A stretch of 64,000 nt of DNA. Source: a virus. The notes beneath the pieces were generated by a model. It did no database searches and was not told the origin of the DNA. It worked only from the letters and a program-made list of their open reading frames with translations. Below are positions 1-18,104 of the stretch, piece after piece. The stretch is taken from positions 1 through 64,000 of the IMG/VR virus record IMGVR_UViG_3300046804_004848, one strand, 5' to 3'. Every line of letters begins with the position of its first letter. Position 1 is the first letter of the stretch. Made by a program: the position numbers and the translations under genes.

Positions 1-339
1 ATGACTAAAATGTTCACTACTACAATTAATTACAATATCAGGTGGGTTCGTCCAATCTAGTTCATTAGAGTTAGCAACTATATTCTCTACCATAATTGGG
101 TTGTATATTGTCCATGCATTGCAAATTTTATCAGCAATTTCTTTAGAAGCTTCATCTATATCGTATCCTACAATAGAAGCATAATAATCAGGCTTACGTA
201 TGTGTAACATAAAAGCAAGCAGGTTATACCAACTTCCCAAAATCCATATACGTGAATTATATTTTGCGTATCGTTCTATTTCTTCGCACAACCATAATTT
301 ACTAATGATTTGACCATGACTAAAAGCATCGTAGTTCAT
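1..339 (-). CDS. Putative SAM-dependent methyltransferase-like protein, truncated by window edge
   Basis: Manual translation from ATG at 339: MNYDAFSHGQIISKLWLCEEIERYAKYNSRIWILGSWYNLLAF...VGYDIDE...DIVINCSSEHF; Rossmann-like motif pattern; open to position 1. Confidence 0.6.
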   Translation of the reverse strand, partial: MNYDAFSHGQIISKLWLCEEIERYAKYNSRIWILGSWYNLLAFMLHIRKPDYYASIVGYDIDEASKEIADKICNAWTIYNPIMVENIVANSNELDWTNPPDIVINCSSEHFSH

Positions 340-378
340 AAAACTATTTACAGATAGCCTATTAAAATAAATAATTTT

Positions 379-1233
379 ATGACTACAAAAATTTTAATTA
401 TGGGGTTGCCTGGTTCGGGCAAAACACACTTAGCAGAAAGACTTAAATCATATCTTGAAAAACCAAGAAGTATTACAGAAATACCATTATCTAAATTAGC
501 AAATTATGAGATTGTTCCGCAAGAATGGAAACCATCCGTAAAGTGGTTTAACGCAGATGATGTGCGTAAACGTTATAATGATTGGGATTTCAGCACAGAA
601 GGTCGTATACGACAATCTATACGTATGGCAGATTTTGCTATAAACAGTGGCAGCGATTATGTGATTTGCGATTTTGTCGCACCATTAGTTGAAATGCGTA
701 ATACCTTCAAAGCAGATTGGACAATATGGATGGACACCATTGATGCAGGTCGTTACGAAGATACAAACAAAGCATTTATACCACCTGCACAATATGATTT
801 CCGTGTTACTGAAAAAAATGCTGAATTTTGGGTAAAGTATATTGGTGAACGTATTATCAAAGAACAGCGTAGACCAACATTTGATTGGCGTAAAGAAACA
901 GTACAAATGTTAGGACGTTGGCAACCGTGGCATGCGGGTCATCGTGCATTATTTGAACGATTGTTACAGCGTACAGGACAAGTCGTTATTCAAATACGTG
1001 ATGTTCAAGGATGGCAAGGCAGTAACCCTTTTAATGTTAATCAAGTTAAAGGTTATATTAAACGAGATTTAGACCCATTATATCAAGGACAATATGAAAT
1101 CATGTTAGTGCCTAATATTGTACATATTGGTTGGGGTCGTGGTGTAGGCTATACAAGTGGTGAAGAAACATTTGATGAAACTATCACAAGTATTAGTGCA
1201 ACTAATATTCGTAAGCAAATGGGATTGGAATGA
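379..1233 (+). CDS. APS-kinase-like P-loop kinase fused to HxGH nucleotidyltransferase
   Basis: N-terminal GLPGSGKT Walker A and NADDVR/FVAP motifs typical of CysC; C-terminal GRWQPWHAGH and ISATNIR nucleotidyltransferase motifs. Confidence 0.75.
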   Translation: MTTKILIMGLPGSGKTHLAERLKSYLEKPRSITEIPLSKLANYEIVPQEWKPSVKWFNADDVRKRYNDWDFSTEGRIRQSIRMADFAINSGSDYVICDFVAPLVEMRNTFKADWTIWMDTIDAGRYEDTNKAFIPPAQYDFRVTEKNAEFWVKYIGERIIKEQRRPTFDWRKETVQMLGRWQPWHAGHRALFERLLQRTGQVVIQIRDVQGWQGSNPFNVNQVKGYIKRDLDPLYQGQYEIMLVPNIVHIGWGRGVGYTSGEETFDETITSISATNIRKQMGLE

Positions 1234-1949
1234 CTTTTGATAGAACGTGCATATTATGTACACCACGTTCAGGTAGTCAATTGTGTGAAAAATTACTACA
1301 ACAAGCTCAACTGGAAAAATATATTCATTTTGGTGAATATTTTGAAAAATGGAATCAATCAACTTATATCATTGAAAATAACATTGTAAAACAGCATATC
1401 TACCAAAATAAAAGAAACGATTATGGTATAGATGAATCATTTAAAACACGATTGTCAAGTTTAAAATCACTACAACAACCTATCAGTTTACGTTTGTTTT
1501 GTTTGTATTCTTATGACATAAAGACACTGCAGTATATCATTAATGAATTAAGATCTTTCAATTTTAAGTTTCTAGTGTTAACGAGAAATAATAAAAAAGA
1601 ACAATTGCTTAGTTGGCTTATAGCAAGAAGTTACACAGATACTTTTAAACATAATGTATTTGGTGCGAATTCTAAACTTGATAACAAAGTATACATTGAC
1701 ATACAAAAATATAGAAATACAATAGGTAATTTTGTATTAACTTATCGTTATTGGGAAACCATGATGCAAGAACTATTACCTACGTTAGAAATAAAAAAAG
1801 TCATATATGAATCCATATATCATGATATGAAATTACATTATGGGATTGAATTTACTACTATTGGTGAAAAGACTATAGATAAAGCATACAATGAATATGT
1901 TCAAAACTATGATGAAGTAAACCAACATTTAGATAAGTTTCTTGCTTGA
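1230..1949 (+). CDS. Sulfotransferase-family protein (Stf0-like)
   Basis: TPRSGSQL 5'-PSB-like motif, LTRNNKKEQLLSW 3'-PB-like motif, late YE motif; overlaps upstream stop. Confidence 0.6.
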   Translation: MTFDRTCILCTPRSGSQLCEKLLQQAQLEKYIHFGEYFEKWNQSTYIIENNIVKQHIYQNKRNDYGIDESFKTRLSSLKSLQQPISLRLFCLYSYDIKTLQYIINELRSFNFKFLVLTRNNKKEQLLSWLIARSYTDTFKHNVFGANSKLDNKVYIDIQKYRNTIGNFVLTYRYWETMMQELLPTLEIKKVIYESIYHDMKLHYGIEFTTIGEKTIDKAYNEYVQNYDEVNQHLDKFLA

Positions 1950-1986
1950 CACCTAAATAAGTGTCTGCTATATTGCGAAACATGTT

Positions 1987-2065
<79 letters not shown>

Positions 2066-2144
2066 AAATATGCAAAAAATATGGCTTTTTTGTAGGGTTT
2101 TTGCAACAATGTATAAATAACCTTACATTAAGATACAAAAGTAG

Positions 2145-2173
2145 TTGACAAAGAAAATTTTATAAGGTAAAGT
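2145..2173 (+). promoter_or_regulatory. Sigma70-type promoter in front of leader ORF and tRNA array
   Basis: TTGACA-17 nt-TAAAGT; TATAAATA late-type motif also at 2112-2119. Confidence 0.6.
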
Positions 2174-2180
2174 AACAAAC

Positions 2181-2297
2181 ATGAAAAGTCTCAGAAATAC
2201 GATGAGTTTAGCGAAGGGTACACAACCAAGTTGGTGTGCGATCCCCCATGCTCGCTCATATAATTTTGAGGATATTGGGGGCAGGGGTTCAGGCTAA
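2181..2297 (+). CDS. Putative attenuator leader peptide (38 aa)
   Basis: MKSLRNTMSLAKGTQPSWCAIPHARSYNFEDIGGRGSG*; ATG 7 nt after the -10 box (probably leaderless); 3' end complementary to the terminator left arm. Confidence 0.6.
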   Translation: MKSLRNTMSLAKGTQPSWCAIPHARSYNFEDIGGRGSG

Positions 2298-2324
2298 TCA
2301 TAGATAGTACATAAGATTACACTG

Positions 2325-2359
2325 AACCCTAGGAATAAACCCCTAGGGTTTTTTGTTTT
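2325..2359 (+). terminator. Intrinsic terminator with overlapping antiterminator
   Basis: AACCCTAGG/CCTAGGGTT stem plus T tract; alternative pairing GGGTTCAG (2285-2292) with CTGAACCC (2322-2329). Confidence 0.8.
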
Positions 2360-2360
2360 A

Positions 2361-2522
2361 CGTGTGTGAGAAACGAGGTCTCAGTGGTGCACGATAAACA
2401 TGCCACGAACGGTCGGAGTCTCGGTATGAAACTGTGGCGATAACACAGGAGTAAGATGAGCAAGTGGGGGATGGCCCCACTACATTCTTAAGATAATTGA
2501 GTACAGTTGTTTTAAGAATGTA
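2361..2522 (+). ncRNA. Unidentified structured RNA preceding the tRNAs
   Basis: GC-rich non-coding stretch with hairpins CTGTG-GCGATAA-CACAG and GTGGGG/CCCCAC, and long TACATTCTTAAGA/TTTTAAGAATGTA stem. Confidence 0.45.
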
Positions 2523-2529
2523 AAAATAT

Positions 2530-2607
2530 ATCCCCTTAGCTCAGTGAACTTAGAGCGTACCGCTACGGACGGTAAGGACGTGGGTTTGAATGCTACAGGG
2601 GGTGCCA
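2530..2607 (+). tRNA. tRNA-Arg (ACG), degenerate T arm
   Basis: TACCG-CTACGGA-CGGTA anticodon arm; T loop TTTGAAT; CCA end. Confidence 0.8.
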
Positions 2608-2612
2608 AGTTT

Positions 2613-2726
2613 AGGATGCTAACAGCAAGTTATGATGCTTCGGGAGCCGTCTGTTGTAGGTTCAAATCCTACCATGTCTTGTAAAAGGTATGTAGCTCAA
2701 TGGTAGAGCAACGATAATGCATCCTG
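2613..2726 (+). ncRNA. Y-RNA-like (YrlA-like) RNA with circularly permuted tRNA module; scaffold copy 1
   Basis: AGGATGC-TAACAGCAA...AAT-GCATCCTG closing stem enclosing T arm (GTAGG-TTCAAAT-CCTAC), loop-closed acceptor stem, then D arm (TAGCTCAATGGTAGAGC). Confidence 0.75.
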
Positions 2727-2734
2727 TTTTATAT

Positions 2735-2810
2735 GTAAGCGTGACCCGAATGGCTAGGGAACGGATTGCAACCCCGTTTTATGCAGGTTCAACTCCTGTC
2801 GCTTACTCCA
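2735..2810 (+). tRNA. tRNA-Cys (GCA)
   Basis: Anticodon loop TTGCAAC, T arm GGTTCAACTCC, TCCA end. Confidence 0.9.
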
Positions 2811-2816
2811 AACAAT

Positions 2817-2890
2817 TCCGGGGTAGTATAAAGGCATTATAGGGGTCTCCAAAACCCATGATGGGGGTTCGATTCCCTCCCTCGGAGCCA
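2817..2890 (+). tRNA. tRNA-Trp (CCA)
   Basis: Anticodon loop CTCCAAA, GGTTCGATTCC, GCCA end. Confidence 0.9.
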
Positions 2891-2912
2891 TACTATTTTG
2901 AATAAATACAAC

Positions 2913-3407
2913 ATGCTAATTAAAGAATTACTTACAGAATCTACCAATCGTAAAATTGGTAAAGTTATTGGTGGACAAATTTATGTTCACAAAGACTATG
3001 TTGATTCACCATTACTCAAACGTGAAATACCGCTGTCTTGGTACAAATTAGCTGTTTCTAAATTGCCACCTGATTTTGATTACACTGTGGTACGTTATGA
3101 TTTAAAAGATGGTTCAATCGCATTTATTTCATCACCTGACTTTGATTCTGCAGATGAACCTACAGTAGGTACTTCCATTAAAGTCACTAGAGATGGTAAC
3201 GTTAAAGTTACTAAACCATTAGCTGATCCTTGGATATGGCATCATAAGTGGGAATGGGTTGGTGATGATTATAGTGGGTTTGATGTTGAACAAAGTAAAG
3301 CACGATCCGAAAAATGGAAATCCATTGTAGGTGTAGACAAAGCTGTTTCTTCTAGAATAGGTAAGAAAAGCTATTGGGATCGTGAAATCGTACCTAAAAT
3401 AAAATAA
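2913..3407 (+). CDS. Hypothetical protein resembling a domain of DNA phosphorothioation-associated putative methyltransferases
   Basis: GKVIGGQIYVH...FISSPDFD...PWIWHHKWEWV..DY pattern recognised from memory; N-terminus MLIKELLTE. Confidence 0.45.
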   Translation: MLIKELLTESTNRKIGKVIGGQIYVHKDYVDSPLLKREIPLSWYKLAVSKLPPDFDYTVVRYDLKDGSIAFISSPDFDSADEPTVGTSIKVTRDGNVKVTKPLADPWIWHHKWEWVGDDYSGFDVEQSKARSEKWKSIVGVDKAVSSRIGKKSYWDREIVPKIK

Positions 3408-3408
3408 C

Positions 3409-3498
3409 GGAAGCGTGGCAGAGTGGATTAATGTACCTGACTTGAAATCAGACGGTCATGAAAGTGGCCCGTGAGTTCGAATCTCACCGCTTCCACCA
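3409..3498 (+). tRNA. tRNA-Ser (TGA)
   Basis: CTTGAAA loop, long variable arm, CCA end. Confidence 0.92.
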
Positions 3499-3511
3499 TA
3501 TAAATACTGTT

Positions 3512-3646
3512 ATGAAAATGTGGCAATTACATTTGTATCATGGTGCATGGTTAGCATTACTTATAACAGTAGGCATGCTTACTTATTGGTGGGTATCGCT
3601 ATTAATGTTTATAGCAATATTTGTTTATGCCTTTATATTTGCTTAA
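3512..3646 (+). CDS. Small membrane protein
   Basis: Hydrophobic 44-aa ORF after TATAAATA motif. Confidence 0.5.
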   Translation: MKMWQLHLYHGAWLALLITVGMLTYWWVSLLMFIAIFVYAFIFA

Positions 3647-3652
3647 ATAAAG

Positions 3653-3729
3653 CTGACCGTAGTTCAGTTGGATAGAACAACAGCCTTCTAAGCTGTGGGT
3701 CGGAGGTTCAAATCCTCTCGGTCAGGCCA
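3653..3729 (+). tRNA. tRNA-Arg (TCT)
   Basis: ACAGC-CTTCTAA-GCTGT, CCA end. Confidence 0.92.
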
Positions 3730-3741
3730 TTTAGAAATAAC

Positions 3742-3834
3742 GGAGAGTTGACCGAGAGGCTGAAGGTACCTTCCTGCTAAGAAGGCAAGTGGTCAAAAGC
3801 TGCTTCGTGGGTTCGAATCCCACACTCTCCACCA
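3742..3834 (+). tRNA. tRNA-Ser (GCT)
   Basis: CTGCTAA loop, long variable arm, CCA end. Confidence 0.92.
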
Positions 3835-3873
3835 AAATTTTTATAGCTGTTTTTAATATATAAATAAATTTAT

Positions 3874-3949
3874 TCACCAATAGCTCAGTCGGTAGAGCAG
3901 CAGACTGTTAATCTGTTGGTCCGTGGTTCAAGTCCACGTTGGTGAGCCA
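3874..3949 (+). tRNA. tRNA-Asn (GTT)
   Basis: GCAGA-CTGTTAA-TCTGT, CCA end. Confidence 0.93.
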
Positions 3950-3966
3950 GTTTTAAAAGGAAACTA

Positions 3967-4323
3967 ATGTCAGAATACTTTGGATATCATCTTTTATTAG
4001 ATTGTAGTGGTTGCGAAAATATTGATAGTCGTGAAAACATTTACAATTGGATAAAATATCTTGTTCCTACCATAGATATGATTGCAGCAGGTGAGCCATG
4101 GATTGAATATTTACTTGAGGATGATCCTAAACAAGGGTATACATTGATGCAAGCTATTACAACAAGCAGTATAACCGCACACTTTATGGAATTAGATAAT
4201 ACTGCTTACATTGACATTTTTAGTTGTAAACCATTTGACATAAATTTAGCACAGTATATTGTCCAAACTTATTTCAATCCAAAGAAAATTCGTGTAAACT
4301 ATCTTACACGCCATGCTGATTAA
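3967..4323 (+). CDS. speD: S-adenosylmethionine decarboxylase proenzyme-like
   Basis: GYHLLLDCSGC, ITTSSITAHF (self-cleavage serine region), YIDIFSCKPFD. Confidence 0.75.
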   Translation: MSEYFGYHLLLDCSGCENIDSRENIYNWIKYLVPTIDMIAAGEPWIEYLLEDDPKQGYTLMQAITTSSITAHFMELDNTAYIDIFSCKPFDINLAQYIVQTYFNPKKIRVNYLTRHAD

Positions 4324-4334
4324 ACGTTTTTAAT

Positions 4335-4408
4335 TCCTCCTTAGTTAAGTGGTATAACATCGGCTTTGTAACCCGAAATCATCTGTTCAATTCAGATAGG
4401 GGGAACCA
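4335..4408 (+). tRNA. tRNA-Thr (TGT)
   Basis: TTTGTAA loop, cloverleaf, ACCA end. Confidence 0.85.
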
Positions 4409-4424
4409 ACCTAACTTATAACTT

Positions 4425-4946
4425 ATGAACATTGAACAAAAACGTGGTATGAGTGGTAATCTCAAACCATTTGACCGTAACGACCATGCTCAATACGATA
4501 GTAAAGGCAAACAAGCTTTTATAAAATATTTAGATGGTTTTTTACCAAAGCATTTAAAGACTATTGAAAATCCTAATGAACATGGTATTGATTTATTAAC
4601 CATAGATCAAAACACAAACAAAGTTGTTCAAACATGGGAAATTGAAGTGCGTCATGGCAATTGGCGAGATGATACACCATTTCCATTTAATGACATTAAT
4701 TGTATTGAACGTAAAGATCATCAGTGGCGTAAAAGCAACGAATATTTAAAAAAGATTCCACATCCTATTGAGCATAATCATCAAGTATGTTATGTACAAC
4801 TTAATGCACCATGCACAAGAGCAGTATTAATTGACGGTGCAATTATATTAAATTATCCATTAAAACCATGGGCAAATCGTAAGGGTGATGGTGAGTATGT
4901 TAGACAAGTACCTGTTGCAAAAACCATACAAATAAAAATTGCTTGA
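4425..4946 (+). CDS. PD-(D/E)xK-like nuclease-fold protein
   Basis: GIDLL...WEIEVR motif. Confidence 0.45.
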   Translation: MNIEQKRGMSGNLKPFDRNDHAQYDSKGKQAFIKYLDGFLPKHLKTIENPNEHGIDLLTIDQNTNKVVQTWEIEVRHGNWRDDTPFPFNDINCIERKDHQWRKSNEYLKKIPHPIEHNHQVCYVQLNAPCTRAVLIDGAIILNYPLKPWANRKGDGEYVRQVPVAKTIQIKIA

Positions 4947-4971
4947 CAACATATCTAAATTTAGTTAATAT
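4943..4971 (+). promoter_or_regulatory. Early sigma70 promoter
   Basis: TTGACA-17-TAATAT with ATATCTAAATT spacer motif. Confidence 0.7.
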
Positions 4972-5001
4972 ATCTCTATTGACAACGAAACGGAGATTGA
5001 A

Positions 5002-5313
5002 ATGAGTTTAGTGACTATCAAGTTAGCTCCCCAAGAAGTTTCAACCGAGTTTTATTTCTCAAAAAATCGTATTGGTTTAGTAAGGTCAGTACTTGATCTT
5101 TACACAGCAGCAAAACCTTTTTTCACTGATCTTGAAGGTACAAAAGCTGCTGAAGAAGCATTTGACCTAACTAACAATCCTTATCGTCAAAGTGAACGTG
5201 TAGAACTTTACGGTAGAGGACGTTCGCTTAGTATCGGTGATATTGTTGAAGTGTGTGCGAATGGTGAGACCACCGAGTTTTTATGTGATAGTTTTGGTTG
5301 GATTAAACTGTAA
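5002..5313 (+). CDS. Hypothetical early protein (YodL-like RSLSIGD motif)
   Basis: RSLSIGDIV...FLCDSFGW; GGAG RBS. Confidence 0.6.
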   Translation: MSLVTIKLAPQEVSTEFYFSKNRIGLVRSVLDLYTAAKPFFTDLEGTKAAEEAFDLTNNPYRQSERVELYGRGRSLSIGDIVEVCANGETTEFLCDSFGWIKL

Positions 5314-5323
5314 GGAGTTGGAA

Positions 5324-5569
5324 ATGATACCGCAAGCTACTAAAGATTCACTTGACAGATATGTTAACGAAGGCATTATGCCAGGTAGTTTTCTCCGAGC
5401 AGTACTTACTAATGATTTAGCAAGTGCTGTATTCCAAGCTGATTCTAAAAATTTAGCCGCATTAAAAGATATTATGTTGTATGTTTACAACGAAATACCT
5501 GCTAATGCTTGGGGTAGCACTGCTACTGTTGTAGATTATGCACAACGAACATTTAAGCAGGTTGCATAA
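5324..5569 (+). CDS. Hypothetical phage protein
   Basis: AAGGAG RBS, ATG 5324; PGSFLRAVLTNDL motif. Confidence 0.65.
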   Translation: MIPQATKDSLDRYVNEGIMPGSFLRAVLTNDLASAVFQADSKNLAALKDIMLYVYNEIPANAWGSTATVVDYAQRTFKQVA

Positions 5570-5614
5570 TATCTAAATTTAACGTATAATTCTCTTATTG
5601 ATTAGGAGATTGAT

Positions 5615-6085
5615 ATGCGATTGAATGTTAATTATTACAATGGTTCAGTAACAGTGATCAGTCTAGAAAAAGAAGCATGTTCATATGTTCAAACAGATGG
5701 TGGACGTGCTTCAGATGGATTTAAAGGTACAAAAAAACGTGATTGTGTAACACGTTCAATTTCAATTATTTTAGGTTTGCCCTATCATCAAGTATGGTGG
5801 GAGTTGAATGAGATGCAATATGAAGCAGGATATGATTTTAATCCTGACAAAGGTGTTATTACCTCGGTATGGAAACAATATTTGGAAGAACGTGGTTACA
5901 AGTATGTATCAGTAAAAAAGTCACGTAAGTATGTAACGAAAAAAGATATTCCTACAGGTAAAGTAATTCTGCATACTAGGGGACACTTGTCTGCGTGTAT
6001 TGATCATGTGGTGCATGATGCTTTTGATAGCAGATACAAGGCTAACAAGCCACGTAAATTGTGGGGATATGTTGTTGTAGCATAA
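5615..6085 (+). CDS. Hypothetical phage protein (DCVTR...H motif)
   Basis: ORF with RBS and own promoter TTGCAT-17-TATAAT. Confidence 0.65.
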   Translation: MRLNVNYYNGSVTVISLEKEACSYVQTDGGRASDGFKGTKKRDCVTRSISIILGLPYHQVWWELNEMQYEAGYDFNPDKGVITSVWKQYLEERGYKYVSVKKSRKYVTKKDIPTGKVILHTRGHLSACIDHVVHDAFDSRYKANKPRKLWGYVVVA

Positions 6086-6140
6086 TTAAGTTCCATTCAC
6101 AAACAGATACATGGTGTGGCAAAAATAAAAAAAGTTAATT

Positions 6141-6229
6141 GGGTGGTGCCCCCTACGGCGGTCTGTAAAATCGTTGGCTTTGTAAAGTAGGGAAGTTGCC
6201 TCGTGGAGCGTTACCATCACCACCCACCA
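6141..6229 (+). tRNA. Atypical tRNA-Tyr-like RNA (GTA) lacking a D arm
   Basis: 8-bp acceptor GGGTGGTG/CACCACCC+ACCA; GCGGT-CTGTAAA-ATCGT anticodon arm; T loop AGCGTTA. Confidence 0.6.
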
Positions 6230-6297
6230 TATTGAAGCACATTTTATCAGGGCAGTATTGTTCAGCGGTTTATAGCCGTAAGTGTGTTTCAATATGG
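6227..6297 (+). repeat. Inter-tRNA long-stem element copy 1
   Basis: CCATATTGAAGCACA...TGTGTTTCAATATGG inverted repeat. Confidence 0.8.
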
Positions 6298-6413
6298 TTC
6301 TCCGAGAAGGTACATCAACCAAGCTCTCAGTTCCCTGCTAGGTAGTGATGGATACAGTACACTAGTAAAGCTCTTGGTTTGATCAGTGTGGTGCGAGTCC
6401 ACAAGAACCGCCA
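6296..6413 (+). ncRNA. tRNA-like RNA with large insertion in the anticodon arm
   Basis: GGTTCT/AGAACC-GCCA acceptor, GTGG-TGCGAGT-CCAC T arm, ACCAAG/CTTGGT stem enclosing about 50 nt. Confidence 0.55.
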
Positions 6414-6506
6414 TATTGAAGCACATTACATACCTTGTAACTAGCGGTGGTAGCCTAGTGAAGGATGCGTCTCCTACCAAGACGTTGATAGTGTGTTTCA
6501 ATATGG
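6411..6506 (+). repeat. Inter-tRNA long-stem element copy 2
   Basis: Same arms as copy 1 with a different structured interior. Confidence 0.8.
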
Positions 6507-6575
6507 TGTAGCTTAACGTTGAAGAGCAGCAAGATCAGATCTTGTCAGCACAGGTTCGGGAGCCTGTCACCATAA
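6502..6575 (+). pseudogene. Degenerate tRNA-like sequence (CAG at anticodon position, no CCA)
   Basis: TATGGTG/CACCATA acceptor, GCAAG-ATCAGAT-CTTGT, ACAGG-TTCGGGAG-CCTGT. Confidence 0.5.
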
Positions 6576-6580
6576 TAAAT

Positions 6581-6778
6581 TTTAGAACCTCGGATTACAC
6601 TTTGACCGTTAGCGAAAGTGGGCGATTGTCGCTGCCATACAGACAGGGTGCTAAGATCTACCCCAAAGCTCGCCTTACATGAGTGATAGAAATATCTTAG
6701 GTGGACGCAGCCTACCATAAGGGTAACGTGGACAGTGTAACTACTCAGTTTAGGGCTAATGAGGATTAGTGGCTAAAC
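6581..6778 (+). ncRNA. Unidentified ~200-nt multi-stem RNA
   Basis: Non-coding and GC-rich; stems CACTTT/AAAGTG, CTAAGAT/ATCTTAG, GGTGG/CTACC, GCTAAT/ATTAGT, TTACACT/AGTGTAA. Confidence 0.55.
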
Positions 6779-6792
6779 ACGAATTATTTTTT

Positions 6793-6852
6793 AGGATGCT
6801 AACAGCCATTTAAAACATCAAACTGATAAATTGAACCGTTAAATGCATCCTG
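6793..6852 (+). ncRNA. Y-like scaffold RNA copy 2 carrying an Ile(GAU) anticodon-loop mimic
   Basis: AGGATGC-TAACAGCCA...TCAAA-CTGATAA-ATTGA...AAAT-GCATCCTG. Confidence 0.65.
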
Positions 6853-6859
6853 TATTATT

Positions 6860-6933
6860 GGGGGATTAGTTAAATGGGATAACATCGGCTTTGCAAGTCG
6901 AGATTGAGAGTTCGATTCTCTCATCCTCCACCA
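6860..6933 (+). tRNA. tRNA-Ala (TGC)
   Basis: TTTGCAA loop, G3:U70 pair, CCA end. Confidence 0.9.
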
Positions 6934-7113
6934 TTAAATAGGATGCTCAAAATCTAGTATAAATTCAAATGCTGCTTTATAATCTGTAAAATATCGCATT
7001 TGAAAATTTTGATCGTATAAATCATGTAACATAACTAAACAAACACCTTGTTCACTACGACACAAATATATGTGTAGTCCACTTGGTGTTAAGGTTTGGT
7101 ATACATCGTTCAT
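6934..7113 (-). CDS. Hypothetical protein
   Basis: MNDVYQTLTPSGLHIY... preceded by TAAATA motif. Confidence 0.5.
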   Translation of the reverse strand: MNDVYQTLTPSGLHIYLCRSEQGVCLVMLHDLYDQNFQMRYFTDYKAAFEFILDFEHPI

Positions 7114-7138
7114 AACCATATTTAGTATAGGAAATATA

Positions 7139-7567
7139 ATGAAAGTTGACAAAAAAGAAAATCCATTCTTTAGTATTACTGCCAAAGATTGTGAATGGTC
7201 ATATACTAAAGGTACAGGAGCAGGTGGACAAAAACGTAATAAAACAAGTTCAGCAGTACATTGTACACATCGTGCAAGTGGTGCACATGGGTATAGCGAA
7301 TCTAGTCGTAGTCAACTAGATAATCGTAAAGATGCATTTGAAAAAATGGCTAATAGTGATAAATTTAAAAAGTGGATTAAATTAGAATATATGAAACGCA
7401 CAGGTGAATTAGTAGAAGCTGAACGTGCGTTGGAACGTGAATTAAAGAAAGTTAAAGTAGAAGTAAAGATTGATGGTAAATGGGTTCAAGTCAGTGAGAA
7501 TCAGTTGGTTGATGATCCTGATACATTTGATACAAGTTTTTTAAAGGAGAGTCCAAATGGACAGTGA
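7139..7567 (+). CDS. Class I release-factor-like peptidyl-tRNA hydrolase (ArfB/PrfH-like)
   Basis: GTGAGGQKRNKTSSAV and RSQLDNRKDA motifs; stand-alone GGQ domain. Confidence 0.85.
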   Translation: MKVDKKENPFFSITAKDCEWSYTKGTGAGGQKRNKTSSAVHCTHRASGAHGYSESSRSQLDNRKDAFEKMANSDKFKKWIKLEYMKRTGELVEAERALERELKKVKVEVKIDGKWVQVSENQLVDDPDTFDTSFLKESPNGQ

Positions 7568-7585
7568 CAAGGTACGAAAGATTAT

Positions 7586-7659
7586 GGGGGTATAACTTAA
7601 TGATAAAGTAATTGGCTTTTAACCAATAAATCAGAGTTTGATTCTCTGTGCCCCTACCA
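7586..7659 (+). tRNA. tRNA-Lys (TTT)
   Basis: ATTGG-CTTTTAA-CCAAT, CCA end. Confidence 0.85.
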
Positions 7660-7702
7660 TTATAATTAAGCATATTAAACATAGTGTTCTTAATTATAAT
7701 AG
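7657..7702 (+). repeat. Inter-tRNA long-stem element, divergent copy 3
   Basis: CCATTATAATTAAGCATATT...TAGTGTTCTTAATTATAATAG begins at the tRNA CCA. Confidence 0.6.
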
Positions 7703-7713
7703 TTTAAAGAATA

Positions 7714-7786
7714 CTCTCTGTGGCGTAATCTGGCAGCGTACTGCGTTTGGGGCGCAGCGGTCTTGGTTCAAATCCAAGCAGAGAGA
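7714..7786 (+). tRNA. tRNA-Pro (TGG), CCA not encoded
   Basis: CTGCG-TTTGGGG-CGCAG; GGTTCAAATCC. Confidence 0.85.
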
Positions 7787-7794
7787 CAATTAAT

Positions 7795-7872
7795 AGGACA
7801 TTGAAGGGAATAGGTATACCTTTTTCGCTTAGAACGAAAAGTTTCTCGGTTCGACTCCGAGGTGTCCTACCA
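7795..7872 (+). tRNA. tRNA-Leu (TAG) without long variable arm
   Basis: TTTCG-CTTAGAA-CGAAA; short variable loop; ACCA end. Confidence 0.8.
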
Positions 7873-7875
7873 AAT

Positions 7876-8439
7876 TTACTTCATTCCTGCCATGCTTTTT
7901 AACTGATCAAGTTTGGCATCATACTTAGCACCCCAACTCATTACCCAATTTTTTAGTTTAGTAATATATTGAGATAGCTTACCCTCATCTAGTTGAGGCT
8001 TGTCTTTTGGTTCAATTTTTAATGATGGTGCTTTTTGTGTTACTGTAACCATCGTTTTCTTTAAACCTTCTAATACTGATATAAGTTCAGGAGTAAGTTG
8101 TTTTTCTAAAACCTCTAATATATCCTTATATTTTGGTGATACCGTAGCTTTGGGATCTTTTGAAAGTGTTATAATAAATGATACTGTGTCAATAACACGT
8201 GTTTTTACAGCGTCTTCAATATCAAATAAATCAGATACATTTTCACGTGAAGATTGTTTTACTTCATCTTCAAGTGCTTTAAGTTCGGTTTTAAGTTCAT
8301 TAATACGTTTAACTTTTTTAGCTAAGTTAGTATAGATTTGACTTTGATGGCTTTTTAAAGAAACTGTGGTCTTATCAGGCTCATCCATATATGGAAAGTC
8401 GCCAAGACGTGCTTCATTAATGATTTCAGTATATTTCAT
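7876..8439 (-). CDS. Hypothetical coiled-coil protein with internal-protein-like N-terminus
   Basis: MKYTEIINEA start; upstream ATAAATA motif. Confidence 0.7.
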   Translation of the reverse strand: MKYTEIINEARLGDFPYMDEPDKTTVSLKSHQSQIYTNLAKKVKRINELKTELKALEDEVKQSSRENVSDLFDIEDAVKTRVIDTVSFIITLSKDPKATVSPKYKDILEVLEKQLTPELISVLEGLKKTMVTVTQKAPSLKIEPKDKPQLDEGKLSQYITKLKNWVMSWGAKYDAKLDQLKSMAGMK

Positions 8440-8477
8440 AAAAGTATTTATCCTAGTTTATCTATATAAATATTGGT

Positions 8478-8792
8478 GTGAAAGATATTTACGATTATAT
8501 TAAACTCACGAAAAAGGAACGTCAAGAACATTTGGATCTTGATGACTATTGTATAGAACGTGGTGGTGGCTCAACAATTTGCAAAGGATTACTTGCACAT
8601 TTACTTGAAACTACCATACCTAAAGGGCATCAGATACATGTTTGTCACGCTTGCAATAATGGCAAGTGCAGTAATCCAAAACACTTATATTGGGGTACCG
8701 CTTCAGAAAACCGTATGGATCGTGTTAGGTATGAAAATAGATCCATTAGCGAAATGCTAGAAGACAGGTATCGTAGACGAAAACCTACATGA
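8478..8792 (+). CDS. HNH/His-Me finger endonuclease
   Basis: VCHACNNGKCSNPKHLYWGTASENRMD. Confidence 0.8.
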   Translation: MKDIYDYIKLTKKERQEHLDLDDYCIERGGGSTICKGLLAHLLETTIPKGHQIHVCHACNNGKCSNPKHLYWGTASENRMDRVRYENRSISEMLEDRYRRRKPT

Positions 8793-9484
8793 TTGATGAT
8801 AAATCACATATAATTTTAAATAAAGCAAATTTAGAACTATATTTAAAATATGTTTGTGGCAAACTAAATGCTGACTTTAGTGCAGAAAGTACAACTAATG
8901 CACAATTATTGAACTTATTAGAAGTAAGTTTAACTGATAAAAATGGTTCTAGTGCTAGAGAACAAGTTATAGCACATATGCTTGATTATCAATGGCAAAG
9001 TAAAAAACTAGGTATTGATGCTATAGATTTAAAACACAATAGATACAAAGAGATTAAACCCACATCTAATTCTAAAATGGGTAAAGCTAGTTCGTTAAGG
9101 TTTAATTTTAATGACGTGACACGAGAATCAATTCATAAATATGAACATACAGATATTGTCGTTGCATTGTTTCAAAATTGTAGATTAATTATAGTTCTTG
9201 AGTTTCCGTTTAGTGTGATTGAACAATATTTCAATAGTAGAATAGAAAAAATGTTTACTGATATTAAACATCAAAATAAACGTAAGACGATGAATATTGG
9301 AGCAAAAGAATATATTAGCAGTCCTCATTTGAAAGTACACTATATTGACAAAGAACTTATCCTTGCTTATAATTCAATTACTAAAAAAAATTTAGCTATA
9401 ATAGAAAACGCCACTAACCATGTTAACATCCATACTACCGAATTACTTGAACATAAGATACAGTTTGAGGAATCTATCGGATGA
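8789..9484 (+). CDS. Putative restriction-endonuclease-like PD-(D/E)xK protein
   Basis: GIDAID...YKEIK...FNFND; overlaps methyltransferase start. Confidence 0.5.
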   Translation: MIDDKSHIILNKANLELYLKYVCGKLNADFSAESTTNAQLLNLLEVSLTDKNGSSAREQVIAHMLDYQWQSKKLGIDAIDLKHNRYKEIKPTSNSKMGKASSLRFNFNDVTRESIHKYEHTDIVVALFQNCRLIIVLEFPFSVIEQYFNSRIEKMFTDIKHQNKRKTMNIGAKEYISSPHLKVHYIDKELILAYNSITKKNLAIIENATNHVNIHTTELLEHKIQFEESIG

Positions 9485-10442
9485 ATATTTTCTATCTATT
9501 ATAGACCAACTTGCAGAAGAATTAGAAAATCATCCTTACACCATACAATATCCAATCAAAAAGTTAGAACAAGATTGGAAAAATCTTATTGCTTTTAAAG
9601 AACAAACCAACACTATTAATTCTACATCAAGATTAGGTATGAAATTATGTGAACATTTTTTCCCTAATTTTTTTGATATTGAAAATAACAAAGGTGAAAG
9701 CTTTTCTAAACTGTGGAAAAAAGACAATATTAAAAAAATATTAATTTGGAATAGAAAAAGTCATTCTACTCCATATATGTCAGAACTTAGACGTGGTGTA
9801 TATTTTTGCTTGGGTTTAACTAAAAACACAATGTTTCGCCCACAATTAGCCAAACTTATTTGTAACAAATATAAACCTGATATTGTGCTTGATCCTTGTG
9901 CAGGATGGGGAGGAAGATTATTAGGCACAGTAGCGCATGGTGCAAAATATATAGCTTTTGAACCAAACACAACAACTTATGATGGTTTACAGGCATTAGT
10001 AAAGTTTTGTAATATACAAGATAGAGTGCAATTAATTTGTGATGATGCACGAAATATGCATCAATATGATTTCCCACAAGTAGATATGGTATTAACAAGT
10101 CCACCTTATTTTGATGTGGAAATTTATACAAAACAAACAACACAATCAATCACTAATTGTAACACTTATGATGAATGGGCAACGGGGTTTTTGAAAAATA
10201 TAATAGACCAATCCTTAAGCAGATTAAATAAACATGGTGTAAGTTGTTGGAATGTGGGTAAAGTAGGTTCACGTTTTATGCAAGATGATGTAGCGCATTA
10301 TCACCAACAAAATATGTTTACTAACGTAAATGAATTTAGTGTGATAAGCAGTAAACGACAAGCATTACAAACAACTGATAGCAAAAAAAGTGCTGATGTA
10401 ACGGTTGTATATCAAACATGCGGGTATGGTGCTAACGGTTAA
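9420..10442 (+). CDS. DNA amino-methyltransferase (N4C/N6A type)
   Basis: VLDPCAGWGGR (motif I) and LTSPPYF (motif IV). Confidence 0.85.
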   Translation: MLTSILPNYLNIRYSLRNLSDEYFLSIIDQLAEELENHPYTIQYPIKKLEQDWKNLIAFKEQTNTINSTSRLGMKLCEHFFPNFFDIENNKGESFSKLWKKDNIKKILIWNRKSHSTPYMSELRRGVYFCLGLTKNTMFRPQLAKLICNKYKPDIVLDPCAGWGGRLLGTVAHGAKYIAFEPNTTTYDGLQALVKFCNIQDRVQLICDDARNMHQYDFPQVDMVLTSPPYFDVEIYTKQTTQSITNCNTYDEWATGFLKNIIDQSLSRLNKHGVSCWNVGKVGSRFMQDDVAHYHQQNMFTNVNEFSVISSKRQALQTTDSKKSADVTVVYQTCGYGANG

Positions 10443-10495
10443 CACGAGACCTTGCCAAGGTTTAGTTGAGGGTTCGATTCCCTCTACCCGCTCCA
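10420..10495 (+). tRNA. tRNA-Gly (GCC)
   Basis: TTGCCAA loop, TCCA end; overlaps methyltransferase 3' end. Confidence 0.9.
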
Positions 10496-10502
10496 ATAAT
10501 TA

Positions 10503-10577
10503 GGTGATATGGCGTAGAAGGATGCGCACAGGTTTCATAAGCCTAGGAGGTTGGGTCGGTACCAACTATCACCACCA
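10503..10577 (+). tRNA. tRNA-Met (CAT) with non-canonical T loop
   Basis: TTCATAA loop; T loop GTCGGTA; ACCA end. Confidence 0.75.
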
Positions 10578-11165
10578 TTATTCATTTGGTGTAGATGCAA
10601 GTAATTCCATCAATTCATTTTCATTATAATAATAATTACCAAGAATAAGCAATATAAAGTCAAATACTTGTATTCTACGTGTTAAACCCATTATATTGAT
10701 GTTAATGTTATATATTCTCTCCTCAAGTGAATCATAAAGAATATCCTCAGTTCGTTGTTTCATTTTGAGTTTTTTCTTTACTTTTTCAAATTTTTCTAAA
10801 TCTTTTTTGTTATCCTTGATTTGATCCTTCATTTGTGATTGAGATTGTTCTACTTCTCTACGCATGTTAAAAATTAAATCATTAATTTCAGGATTATGCA
10901 CAGATAATTGATTCCAAAAAACACGCAGCATCATTTGTTTAGCCTCTTGATACATAGTGTTATCAATATAGGCAGAATTATCATTGTCAAATGATTTACG
11001 TCTAAAAGGATCACTTAAAATTTGATAAGCATTATTGATTTCCTGAAATTTAGCTATATTTCCACCTTTGTCAGGATGATTTTCATTAGCTAACTGACGG
11101 TATTTTTGTTTAATTTCATCAAAGGTTGCGTTCTTATTTACACCTAAAATATCATATGGGTTCAT
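10578..11165 (-). CDS. J-domain (DnaJ-like) protein
   Basis: PYDILGV...HPDKGG...FQEINNAYQILSDP. Confidence 0.9.
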   Translation of the reverse strand: MNPYDILGVNKNATFDEIKQKYRQLANENHPDKGGNIAKFQEINNAYQILSDPFRRKSFDNDNSAYIDNTMYQEAKQMMLRVFWNQLSVHNPEINDLIFNMRREVEQSQSQMKDQIKDNKKDLEKFEKVKKKLKMKQRTEDILYDSLEERIYNININIMGLTRRIQVFDFILLILGNYYYNENELMELLASTPNE

Positions 11166-11207
11166 GTAAATATTTAGTTAGGTGGTTTGGCTAGTTAAAT
11201 ATGTTGC

Positions 11208-11783
11208 ATGAAACGTATTAACGATTTGATTTTTGTTGTCAACAATTTTGTTACTAAACATACCTGTCATCAAATGTACGAATACTTAACCAATACTGTA
11301 ACTCATAATATTGCAGATGAGCATGACATGCCTTGGGAGTTAGGTAATAATATTTTTTATTCTGATATTAAAGATACGTATATAAAAGAAAAAGTTTATA
11401 ATATAAAATTTGGTGTCGCTAATTTGCTAAGTTATTTGCATAATACCAAAGTATATCCACATTTTACAGATATGGTTTTATGGCAAAAGCATCAACAAAT
11501 GAATAGGCATGTGGATAATGGAAGCAATCAAGTAGGGCGAGATGATTTAGCCATGAGAAAATATTCTGCAATTATCTATTTAAATGATAATTACAAAGGT
11601 GGCAAGACATTTGTTAGTTTGGATGAAGAAAATGATTATATTTCTAAACCTAAGACAGGTACATTGTTAATGTTTACAAGTGACCAACGTACTACGCATG
11701 GAGTAAAAAAAGTAAAAGTAGGGTATCGTGGCACGTTAGCCATGTGGTTTGCAACAGAAAAGAAGTATCAAGAGAAAGACTAA
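11208..11783 (+). CDS. 2OG-Fe(II) oxygenase (prolyl-4-hydroxylase-like)
   Basis: HVD, YLNDNYKGG, HGV...R motifs. Confidence 0.85.
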   Translation: MKRINDLIFVVNNFVTKHTCHQMYEYLTNTVTHNIADEHDMPWELGNNIFYSDIKDTYIKEKVYNIKFGVANLLSYLHNTKVYPHFTDMVLWQKHQQMNRHVDNGSNQVGRDDLAMRKYSAIIYLNDNYKGGKTFVSLDEENDYISKPKTGTLLMFTSDQRTTHGVKKVKVGYRGTLAMWFATEKKYQEKD

Positions 11784-11784
11784 A

Positions 11785-11860
11785 GGACGGTTAGCTCAGT
11801 TGGTAGAGCGGCACGTTTACACCGTGTAGGTCGGGAGTTCAAACCTCTCACCGTCCACCA
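11785..11860 (+). tRNA. tRNA-Val (TAC)
   Basis: GCACG-TTTACAC-CGTGT, CCA end. Confidence 0.92.
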
Positions 11861-11886
11861 TTATAAAACGGTTAAATACAGTTATT

Positions 11887-12450
11887 ATGACTGTCTCATC
11901 AAAATATTTTATAGATATACCAAATTTAGGTTTTCAATTTTTACAACCTAATTTAAACGCAACTGACTACTTACCTGAAGTTGTTACACATAATTGGGTT
12001 GAGACACAAACTAACAATTTTTTTACAGATCAAGCGATATCATGGTTTAATCATATTGGCTTTGATATTAAACATACATTGTATTTGTTTTGTGCAAACT
12101 CTCAGGTGATAGGTCCGATCCATAGTGATTTAACCAATTATGCTTTTAATTTTGTTGTAAGTGGTTATGGTAAGATGGAATGGATTAAACCGCACAATAA
12201 ACCTTATACACATGAAAAAATATATGGCAATCGTGTGTCAAAGTATTTACGATTTGAACCACATATTGAAGATATGGTCATTGATTCATGGGTTGGTACT
12301 CAAGCTTTGGTACAAGTGTTTACACCACATCGTATTGTTACTAGTCATGAAAAACGCTATACTGTTTCTTTACGTACGCATGGTAAAAAAATACAATCAT
12401 GGGAACAAGCTGTTAGTAATTTACAACAGTATATAAATTCGCCTCTTTAG
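11887..12450 (+). CDS. Hypothetical cupin/2OG-like protein
   Basis: IHSD...PHRI...RYTVSLR pattern. Confidence 0.5.
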   Translation: MTVSSKYFIDIPNLGFQFLQPNLNATDYLPEVVTHNWVETQTNNFFTDQAISWFNHIGFDIKHTLYLFCANSQVIGPIHSDLTNYAFNFVVSGYGKMEWIKPHNKPYTHEKIYGNRVSKYLRFEPHIEDMVIDSWVGTQALVQVFTPHRIVTSHEKRYTVSLRTHGKKIQSWEQAVSNLQQYINSPL

Positions 12451-12515
12451 CTCAGTGGTAGAGACCCATCTTGATAAGGTGGGGGTCCTTGGATCGTTCC
12501 CAAGAAGAGGCACCA
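12441..12515 (+). tRNA. tRNA-Ile (GAT)
   Basis: CCATC-TTGATAA-GGTGG; T loop ATCGTTC; ACCA end. Confidence 0.8.
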
Positions 12516-12532
12516 ATTTTATTAAGGAGAAA

Positions 12533-13138
12533 ATGATGCCTGCAGTTTGGATAGTAAGTGACACACATTTCGGTCACGAAAAAACTTGCACTGTTTTTAA
12601 ACGTGAAGATGGGTCACCACTTAGACCGTTTAGCAGTGCTGAAGAAATGGATGAGTTTATGGTCAAAGCATGGAATGAACGTGTTAGACCAAATGATAAG
12701 GTATACCATTTAGGCGATGTTGTAATCAATAGAAAAGCCTTAAATACCCTACGCAGACTAAATGGCGATAAGGTGCTTATACGTGGTAATCATGATATTT
12801 TTAAATTACAAAATTACTTAGAGCATTTTAGAGATATTCGTGGATACCATGTGATGAATGGACTTATTTTAAGTCATGTGCCCGTACATCCAAAAAGTCT
12901 TGGACGCTTTGGTTGTAATATACACGGGCACTTACACGCCAATAAAGTTATGAAAGCGAGAGGTTTCGATGCTAAAACAGAAGAAATCTTATATTCAGAT
13001 GAGATTGATCCAAGATATTGGTGTGCCTGTGTTGAACAAACTGACTTCGCACCTATCTTGTTTGAACATGCTTTAAAAAAGATTGTTGAGCAAGGAGGAC
13101 GAGTTGGCTTCCAAAATGGAAACGGTCCTACCATGTAA
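12533..13138 (+). CDS. Calcineurin-like metallophosphoesterase
   Basis: SDTHFGH, HLGD, GNHD, HGHLH; AAGGAG RBS. Confidence 0.9.
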   Translation: MMPAVWIVSDTHFGHEKTCTVFKREDGSPLRPFSSAEEMDEFMVKAWNERVRPNDKVYHLGDVVINRKALNTLRRLNGDKVLIRGNHDIFKLQNYLEHFRDIRGYHVMNGLILSHVPVHPKSLGRFGCNIHGHLHANKVMKARGFDAKTEEILYSDEIDPRYWCACVEQTDFAPILFEHALKKIVEQGGRVGFQNGNGPTM

Positions 13139-13739
13139 TAGATTTACATTTAGGGCCATGCCAACGAGTGTAGTTTGATTTGGATATATTGACAATACCA
13201 CAATGCTCACAGCTTTTTAAGTGGGCATTGTTTTTTGTCCAATGATTCTCTCCGCTTATTTTTGCTAATGCCACAGGATCATACATTGGATTGTTCTCCA
13301 AGAGTTGTTTAGAAGCACGAGCACGATTCTCGGTAAAAGATCCTGGATTGTTGATACGCATACGCTCACGATTCTTCGGAGTATTAAAATGATGTTTACT
13401 GCCTAAAGATTTTTGGCGAATAGAATGTTTCAGTCTATTCTCCGGCTTTTTCATATGGTGTGCGTCACCGCAGGGAAATCCTGTAGCCTGATTACTTTGA
13501 TTCATACATCCGATCTTACCAAAATGTAAATCCAAATAGTATTGTTCTCGCTCGATATAATGCTGTTCATTTTGGCAAACTTCCAAAATAGTTTTGGTAA
13601 CATTGTTTAAATTTTTTATGCTTTTGGACCAAGTGCCGCTACCAATATATTCATCATTAAGATTATTTGTAGCGTGTCGTCCAATATAGTAGTGTCCGTT
13701 TTTATGTTGGACATGATAAATGATATAATGTAAATACAT
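13128..13739 (-). CDS. GIY-YIG (Seg-like) homing endonuclease
   Basis: YIIY...YYIGRH...YIGSG, EREQ, NPM repeats, C-terminal CxxC...RWHGPKCK. Confidence 0.85.
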   Translation of the reverse strand: MYLHYIIYHVQHKNGHYYIGRHATNNLNDEYIGSGTWSKSIKNLNNVTKTILEVCQNEQHYIEREQYYLDLHFGKIGCMNQSNQATGFPCGDAHHMKKPENRLKHSIRQKSLGSKHHFNTPKNRERMRINNPGSFTENRARASKQLLENNPMYDPVALAKISGENHWTKNNAHLKSCEHCGIVNISKSNYTRWHGPKCKSITW

Positions 13740-13810
13740 TTGCTGGTGCTCCTCTAAAGCATTAGAGCGGGTGGATGTTGGTAGCATCGTGATCCGCACC
13801 TTTATTTATC
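13740..13810 (-). promoter_or_regulatory. Structured 5' leader of GIY-YIG gene
   Basis: ATAAATA followed by GCGGAT..GATG-CTACCAA-CATC..ACCCGC stem and TGCT-TTAGAGG-AGCA hairpin over the RBS. Confidence 0.55.
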
Positions 13811-13989
13811 TTTTAACAGGATAAAAATTAGCATTAACAATGAAGGGGGTACTGTTGGTTTTCGCAATGGCAACGCCCCTATTATGTAGGGGTTGTTGCC
13901 AACCTACATTGTCATCATGACAACGCACTTGACTATAATTTGTACTTGTCGTATAATTGGATGGTGGTAATTGATTTAGGAGATTTGAT

Positions 13990-17547: not shown

Positions 17548-17722
17548 AAACCGTGGATCAATTGTTCAAGACTAAACGTGCTGTTGCTACTGCGATGGGT
17601 GGTAAGAATAAAGTACGTAAGTTTAAATTGAAGCGTGATTTTGAAGATGGATACAAATTTAATTATCGTAAAAATGTTTACAAAAGTTTTGAATTAGAGG
17701 TATAATATATAAGTAGTAATAT

Positions 17723-18008: not shown

Positions 18009-18022
18009 AATTGAAGAACAAT

Positions 18023-18097: not shown

Positions 18098-18104
18098 ATA
18101 AAGT

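Follow-up and report, generated by a model that had tools for sequence, protein, structure and literature searches.

How does a phage that carries its own transfer RNA (tRNA) genes decide when to transcribe them? Such genes are usually explained by codon-usage matching or, lately, by the replacement of host tRNAs destroyed by defence nucleases, and when phages choose to make their own tRNAs is, to our knowledge, largely unknown. The question is raised by the virus record IMGVR_UViG_3300046804_004848 of IMG/VR, a viral contig of 137,959 bases from a genome with a guanine-plus-cytosine (G+C) content of 34.7%; its first 64 kilobases (kb) are the stretch analysed here, called the window. The completeness of the contig is estimated at only about 39%, so the phage is probably large. 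ARAGORN called 19 tRNA genes on the contig, every one within 1987-18179. At the head of the first operon of tRNA and noncoding RNA (ncRNA) genes lies an element of about 215 nucleotides (nt), in which a short open reading frame (ORF) precedes an intrinsic terminator. We consider it fairly probable, at roughly 0.6, that this element is a ribosome-mediated (leader-peptide) transcription attenuator.

The original prediction had placed here a promoter, a 38-codon ORF, a pair of complementary arms, an overlapping terminator and a CCCCCA/TGGGGG hairpin within the ORF, and all of these are present with exact coordinates (Table 1). The sequence GGGTTCAG at 2285-2292 is complementary to CTGAACCC at 2322-2329, and the antiterminator and the terminator both use 2324-2330 and are therefore mutually exclusive. 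The terminator stem ranks first among the terminator-like sites of the first 20 kb. The tRNA/ncRNA array does begin right after it, as had been proposed: the order is a structured RNA directly behind the terminator, tRNA-Arg from 2530, a Y-RNA-like module, tRNA-Cys, tRNA-Trp and onward.

Table 1. Coordinates of the leader element and of corresponding features in related loci
Feature	Position	Strand	Remark
TATAAATA motif	2112-2119	+	within a block invariant in 5 of 5 aligned relatives
Sigma-70-like promoter, TTGACA (2145-2150), 17-nt spacer, TAAAGT (2168-2173)	2145-2173	+	matches 10 of 12 positions
Leader ORF, 38 codons and TAA (stop 2295-2297), ATG at 2181	2181-2297	+	19 amino-acid types, no Val; 30 codons
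Hairpin 1, within the ORF	2218-2239	+	seen in predicted folds
Hairpin 2, within the ORF, CCCCCA (2243-2248) paired with TGGGGG (2276-2281)	2243-2281	+	predicted folds
Antiterminator 5' arm, over the last ORF codons	2284-2292	+	stop codon 2 nt further on
Antiterminator 3' arm, overlapping the terminator left arm	2322-2330	+	predicted 9-pair helix with 2284-2292
Intrinsic terminator, stem 2324-2351, then T tract	2324-2359	+	10 pairs, 5 of them G-C
Conserved structured RNA, first read-through product	2361-2522	+	compensatory changes; about 160 nt; tRNA-Arg at 2530 next
Gene of about 50 residues / HNH-protein region	L008 1455-1601 and 1834-2394; L020 359-523		equivalents in L053, L054 and L057
Structured RNA counterparts	L005 3647-3830; L008 about 1606-1830; L053 about 2663-2940; L054 and L057 about 3357-3650

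In the reading that we favour, RNA polymerase would transcribe the leader, and a ribosome keeping pace with it would reach the stop codon and cover 2284-2292 while the polymerase makes 2330-2357, so that the terminator would fold and transcription would end. If the ribosome were absent, late or stalled within about the first 30 codons, 2284-2292 would be free and would pair with 2322-2330 first. The antiterminator formed in this way would block the terminator, and transcription would continue into the structured RNA, tRNA-Arg, the Y-RNA-like module, tRNA-Cys, tRNA-Trp and onward. In effect, the switch would measure how fast ribosomes decode, and the amino acids to which it responds would be many, possibly nearly all. 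Judged from the alignments described below, the terminator/antiterminator switch coupled to a maintained short ORF is real and conserved. The translation of the ORF, the direction of control and the physiological trigger are what we infer from it, and the phage probably transcribes more tRNA when decoding is slow.

No close relative of the locus was found by BLAST of 1900-2560 and 1-8000 against 50,697 phage records; the matches were tRNA-sized only, and a query coverage of 80% was reached by 0 of 208 and 0 of 1004 records, respectively. Relatives of the leader were recovered by other routes. The neighbouring 169-residue protein, used as an anchor, led to nine viral loci, four of which carry the leader (L002-L005), and a motif of the downstream conserved RNA led to L011, L020 and L042. 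Leader-peptide profile searches gave 16 more small proteins of 40-45 residues, and back-translated patterns gave seven additional viral loci. One of the six matches in the representative-protein search, the repetitive 398-residue protein P0011, was dropped as unrelated and is excluded from that count. Two further anchors were unproductive: the upstream 239-residue protein led to no related locus, and the AhpC-like protein upstream in L008 led only to its own contig. In metagenomes, a 19-base pattern of the ncRNA motif matched 34 stretches, of which only L020, L042, L046 and L048 showed BLAST likeness to the ncRNA; the other 30 were dropped as apparent chance matches, which are expected for a 19-base pattern in that collection. 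L046 and L048 are probably the same records as the viral-contig loci L003/L016 and L005/L015. The neighbouring proteins were covered by a Pfam scan. In total, the family comprises 23 distinct peptides, with leader DNA for twelve distinct leaders, and six lineages were compared at the DNA level. Three deep clades can be distinguished: the window type, to which L005 belongs with a DNA identity of about 83%, and the L008 and L020 types. Peptides of different clades agree at only 10-15 residues, and their DNA can hardly be aligned over the first half of the ORF. The window clade contains six sequences, and the window, L002, L003, L004 and L042 make up a close clade.

The same layout recurs in the three deep lineages: a promoter, an ORF of 38-42 codons (in the leaders known as DNA) that starts at the first ATG, a stop codon at the end of the arm, the terminator and an RNA/tRNA operon. 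In an alignment of eight sequences, 95.8% of the cells of the 9-pair antiterminator and 100% of those of the 10-pair terminator are paired, and compensatory changes are found in 2 of 9 and 2 of 10 pairs, respectively. One of the two antiterminator pairs has turned from U-A into C-G in L008; the other has turned from C-G into U-A in both L008 and L020. When the partners were slid by 1-3 columns as a control, the antiterminator had 0 compensatory pairs, and the terminator had 0 in 5 of 6 slides and 1 at slide -2. The terminator is 100% identical between the window and L005, whereas the ORF differs at 26 of 117 sites, and the antiterminator of the L020 clade has 10 pairs. An alignment of related leaders had been expected to reveal a conserved ORF, a covarying antiterminator and a variable peptide. 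The conserved ORF and the covariation were both recovered across the three deep lineages; the peptide, instead of being variable, is conserved within clades.

The predicted folds are consistent with such a switch. The leader is more stably folded than shuffled versions of it (z -2.9, 1 of 200 being as good), and its minimum-energy fold holds the antiterminator, not the terminator. Nascent RNA ending before the 3' arm of the terminator is predicted to form the antiterminator in 6 of 6 lineages, and untranslated RNA should therefore read through. The stop codon sits between 1 nt inside and 3 nt past the antiterminator 5' arm in the six DNA-level lineages; from this geometry and known footprint sizes, a terminating ribosome would cover the arm. 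When the L008-type and L020-type leaders are folded at full length, the beginning of the ORF pairs with the stretch immediately past the stop codon. An equivalent of the anti-antiterminator of trp was not found in the window clade, so a lack of translation should there give read-through, not super-attenuation. RNAalifold also proposed a pairing of the 5' untranslated region (UTR) with the terminator loop, which was rejected because it is broken in L054. Among Rfam families, none for leaders or riboswitches came near its gathering score on 2130-2740. The best match, His_leader (16.1 bits against 49, E=4.6), covered only the terminator, further likeness was to small-RNA terminators and again confined to that part, and T-box gave no match at E up to 10.

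The leader ORF is likely to be translated, to judge from the way in which its frame has been kept. This frame is free of stops in 6 of 6 DNA-level lineages, and the other five frames contain 1-7 stops, except for an antisense frame of the window, whose ORF is not preserved in L005. No other ATG lies between the promoter and the leader ATG in six of six lineages, and of shuffles with matched composition only 3-10% are open. Within the close clade, 7 of the 8 variable ORF sites are synonymous third-position changes and the remaining one is K-to-R (binomial P about 0.003 for third positions), and L054 and L057 are separated by 4 synonymous and 2 non-synonymous differences. A 2-base deletion in L057 causes its antiterminator arm to be read in another frame than in L054, and the stop codon still overlaps the last base of the arm. 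The hairpins within the ORF add a second layer. In L005, an A-to-G change at 2222 retains a pair of hairpin 1 as G-U, the 2247/2277 pair of hairpin 2 changes from C-G to U-A and thereby alters the peptide (H23Y, G33R), and 2243 becomes a U opposite G. Since hairpin pairs survive here through substitutions that change the peptide, constraints on RNA structure and on coding are intertwined. Natural variants of the leader were also seen in metatranscriptome contigs, at 2293-2294 (run X19) and at 2185, 2192, 2273 and 2294 (runs X15 and X17). One pattern is that of L004 (K2R and three synonymous changes), the other turns the last codon from Gly to Asn, and the set of amino-acid types is the same in both.

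In the L008 and L020 clades, a block of the 5' UTR before the leader ATG (L008 1231-1252, aligned with L020, L053, L054, L057 and L058) is invariant in 6 of 6 sequences, with differing ORF bodies. The block contains no Shine-Dalgarno site at the usual distance, and it may be an unusual ribosome-loading or pairing element.

The genes behind the terminator appear to be served from the leader. All 6 window-clade sequences have TTGACA, the -10 element of L005 being TAAGGT, and in the L008 and L020 clades a TTGACA-17-TATAAT sequence lies about 16 nt farther from the ATG. The chance value of such matches has to be set against this, since 84 promoter-like matches were found in 20 kb and 86 are expected from shuffles. 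Between 2174 and 4234 of the window, there is no promoter-like site with at least 10 of 12 matches; among the matches listed, one site, at 3512, has 9 of 12, and a further 24 sites are weaker. In the L008 and L020 clades, 15-25 nt separate the T tract from a conserved gene that encodes about 50 residues and has a Shine-Dalgarno site, which leaves no room for a promoter of its own. The order in these clades is the attenuator, the gene of about 50 residues, the structured RNA, a conserved 186-residue HNH-domain protein and then tRNAs. Within the window clade, the structured RNA has 96-100% identity, against a difference of 17% in the leader. Compensatory changes affect 12 of its 34 predicted pairs in six lineages, a sequence core is common to the three clades, and 2361-2522 matches no Rfam family. 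Contigs over the leader came from four metatranscriptome runs of three studies. In three of these runs, representing two studies, they span the terminator and extend by more than 31 bases to either side of it (2162-2451, 2100-2455 and 2211-2413); the contig of the fourth run ends at 2377.

Several observations weigh against the attenuator. The RNA-library contigs that begin at 2100, 2108, 2155 and 2162 all start upstream of the start predicted from the sigma-70-like promoter. Either another start is used, at TATAAATA or at the tRNA-Met promoter at 1946, or the libraries contain DNA. The sequence TATAAATA, which we take to be the consensus of T4-type late promoters, may provide a second, upstream start for the leader transcript; the contigs starting at 2155 and 2162 fit a start there, and those starting at 2100 and 2108 do not. 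The contigs are compatible with DNA carry-over and carry no information on starts, 3' ends or levels, and gaps between them (e.g., 2488-2655) are uninformative. The evidence for translation is also uneven. The differences between the window and L005 are spread 8/10/8 over the codon positions without bias (proportions of synonymous and non-synonymous differences, pS 0.30 and pN 0.21), and of the 14 sites that vary in the L020 clade only 6 are third positions. The leader has no proper Shine-Dalgarno site, the nearest candidate being an AAGG that ends 12 nt before the ATG, and the leaders of the L008 and L020 clades likewise lack one; a Shine-Dalgarno core is found in 58 of 129 long ORFs of the phage, mostly 5-9 nt upstream. 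The codon adaptation of the leader is in the lowest 1-3% of gene windows, and a non-coding stretch would look alike. In addition, the equilibrium energy preference is not uniform across lineages. The antiterminator state is favoured over the full length in the window (-52.9 versus -48.3 kcal/mol) and L005, the terminator state in L008 (-47.1 versus -38.6 kcal/mol) and L054, and neither state has a clear advantage in L020 and L057. Taken together, the conserved ORF and the competing, covarying helices of the proposed attenuator logic hold in three deep lineages; signs of translation are present too, but the absence of a proper Shine-Dalgarno site and the upstream contig starts count against the proposal.

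The original prediction went further and described the leader as pan-codon, a sensor for stalling at any codon, built from many codons that the phage disfavours. The disfavour is borne out for the ten G/C-ending codons named, each of which is rare in the long ORFs of the phage, with a share of 0.02-0.18 of its synonymous family. The diversity of codons is not, as 30 different codons are at chance level (P=0.27, composition-matched open shuffles). The diversity of amino acids stands in a weaker form, because 19 types are modestly unusual (P=0.04-0.07). A near-complete amino-acid alphabet is nevertheless a real and recurrent feature of the family: all 23 distinct peptides have it, with 19 types in 10 and 20 types in 13, and these peptides are not independent, since they belong to three deep clades and much is inherited within clades through the conserved core. 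In windows of real proteins of this phage, the probability of at least 19 types is 0.04-0.08 and that of 20 types is 0.005-0.012. Against composition-matched open shuffles, P is 0.074 for the window, 0.0095 for L005, 0.10 for L008 and 0.022 for L020. L005 has 20 types despite 26 nucleotide changes, and 26 random substitutions from the window ORF give 20 types in 1.0% of trials. His is absent from 5 of 10 L008-type peptides and is found at four different positions in the other five. These results suggest selection for a near-complete alphabet.

Types were also counted without the last 8 or so codons, because a stall there should mask the antiterminator arm, not free it. Among these stall-sensitive codons, 18-19 types are represented in the 30 codons of the window clade (P=0.035 to 0.004), and each of the 10 L020-type peptides has 19 in its 32-34 codons (P about 0.01-0.02). 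Speaking against a pan-amino-acid leader, the L008 type has only 15-18 types in its stall-sensitive codons (P=0.06-0.68), which is chance level, and near-completeness in one of the three clades relies on residues of the last 8 codons. A match of leader codons to phage tRNAs was considered as well; about 30 of 38 codons are readable by the island tRNAs in a hand count, which is close to the proteome share, and we make no claim from it. It is thus a tentative and rather doubtful proposal that selection keeps the leader stocked with nearly all 20 amino acids, such that any shortage or cleavage of tRNA, including that by host anticodon nucleases, would slow the pioneer ribosome and switch on the phage tRNAs and the structured RNA.

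Other explanations of the locus have to be weighed against an attenuator. The ORF could be an ordinary small protein gene of 38-45 residues followed by a leaky terminator, the pairing of the arms having no regulatory role. The peptide does behave like a protein in some respects, as it varies little within a clade (6 L008-type peptides have 23 invariant columns and 4 L020-type peptides have 30), has Q, P, W, S and G residues common to the three clades and often shows conservative replacements (L/I, R/K, T/S, A/V). However, a mere protein gene fits poorly with an antiterminator helix preserved by compensatory changes, with the frame change of L057, which alters the C-terminal residues and retains the RNA arm, with the hairpin pairs that L005 retains at the cost of two amino-acid changes, and with the dependence of the downstream genes on read-through, so that we regard it as unlikely. 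Alternatively, the RNA switch could be as proposed and its signal specific, with a nascent peptide (W-x-P-x-G-F core) that arrests the ribosome on a ligand or state, or with a protein or small molecule that binds the ORF region. The arrest peptides TnaC and SecM depend on W, P and G residues, and the L008 and L020 types share the motif in the middle of the peptide, where the codons of conserved P, G and S residues differ synonymously. The ORF region is also highly structured with covarying hairpins, and the 5' UTR block of the L008 and L020 clades fits a specific signal as well. Yet the ORF region is almost unalignable between clades as DNA, unlike a ligand-binding aptamer, and the W and P codons (TGG, CCA) are complementary and lie within hairpin arms, so their conservation may be at the RNA level. 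The window-clade peptide fits the motif poorly, and the Rfam searches gave neither a riboswitch nor a T-box match. We therefore give a specific signal a small probability.

A third and very improbable possibility is that the terminator marks the end of an independent small RNA of about 175 nt. The ORF would then be a by-product of a G+C-richer structure, and the tRNAs would be transcribed from unrecognised phage-specific promoters. Phage tRNA regions hold stable small RNAs, as in T4, and the stable fold, the leader G+C of 0.37-0.46 compared with 0.35 for the genome, the atypical codon use and the missing Shine-Dalgarno site would all be expected of such an RNA. But an open frame in 6 of 6 lineages, in the face of indels and strong divergence, and the third-position bias of the close clade are hardly expected of a by-product, and a transcript ending at the terminator does not explain RNA-library contigs that extend past it or a gene with a Shine-Dalgarno site directly after the T tract in the other clades.

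Further features of the tRNA island and the window were observed. Between tRNA-Arg and tRNA-Cys, 2648-2714 gave a partial match to YrlA, a Y-RNA-like family, in a short search (36.1 bits against a gathering score of 69, E=3e-6), and looks like a tRNA-like module. A tRNA was found by Rfam at 10503-10574 (41.9 bits) and was not called by ARAGORN, and a sub-threshold group I intron match (17748-17938, 40.9 against 50 bits) lies just upstream of tRNA-Met at 18023. The island also holds a protein with an RF-1 domain (7070-7567, + strand; peptidyl-tRNA hydrolase or release-factor-like, Pfam E=2.4e-14) and a homologue of S-adenosylmethionine decarboxylase (3967-4323, + strand, E=4.6e-14). At its far end, 19454-20836 (+ strand) encodes a 460-residue protein with matches to phrog_850, labelled 'RNA-binding protein' (E=1.5e-146), and to the Pfam domains DUF2828 and DUF7788. 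Upstream of the leader, 379-1233 (+ strand) encodes a P-loop kinase-like protein with weak KTI12 and APS-kinase matches and, in its second half, an H-x-G-H motif, which we assume to be typical of nucleotidyltransferases. A phosphate-transporter-subunit homologue (phrog_5385, E=2.4e-67) is encoded at 48112-49119 (+ strand).

By its predicted architecture, the element is a leader-peptide attenuator in the structural sense of the term. The leaders trpL, hisL, pheL and leuL and the multivalent thrL and ilv leaders have the same short ORF and exclusive helices, with a ribosome near the stop codon masking one arm, and the distance of about 55 nt from the stop codon to the U tract is of the same order in trp. 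Unlike the trpL/hisL type, the phage leader has no run of one regulatory codon; none of its 19 amino-acid types in 38 codons is dominant. It also differs from the amino-acid operon leaders in having no clear 1:2 helix (in the window clade) and no Shine-Dalgarno site, and in that it would control tRNAs, not biosynthetic enzymes. T-box leaders similarly report tRNA charging by a choice between terminator and antiterminator, whereas they bind uncharged tRNA directly and need no ORF. In Anabaena, the extra tRNAs of a long tRNA array are reported to be silent and to be induced when translation is impaired (PMC8421152, PMC10272220); that array lies on a cellular megaplasmid and is controlled by the repressor TrcR, whereas the phage element would rely on a leader peptide (PMC10272220).

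In logic, the closest known system appears to be the whiB7 (wblC) upstream ORF (uORF) attenuator of mycobacteria and other Actinobacteria. There, a short uORF likewise precedes an antiterminator/terminator choice, and stalling in it gives read-through (PMC10274678). The composition of the uORF sets which amino-acid starvations are sensed, the uORF of M. smegmatis encodes all amino acids except cysteine, and genes tied to 18 of 20 amino acids scored as activators (PMC10274678). A loss-of-start mutation raises basal expression of whiB7 (PMC10274678), and start loss is similarly predicted to raise read-through of the phage leader, because its untranslated nascent RNA folds into the antiterminator. 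In contrast, whiB7 is cellular and its attenuator controls a transcription factor, whereas the phage element would control tRNA and ncRNA genes, and the whiB7 uORF is enriched in alanine, whereas the phage leader has 3 Ala in 38 residues. No sequence relationship links the two, and the phage element lies on a viral contig with ncRNA and tRNAs downstream, so the likeness is one of mechanism only.

Full-text literature searches found no published leader-peptide control of phage tRNA genes. If our reading is true, a simple feedback would stand at the head of the tRNA operon, and tRNA would be made when decoding falters. Leader-peptide attenuation, known for amino-acid genes and for genes of stress regulators, would then also govern translation components encoded by a virus, and a strongly conserved structured RNA would be under the same control. 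If the pan-amino-acid proposal were true as well, the leader would be a phage-borne gauge of decoding capacity, similar to whiB7.

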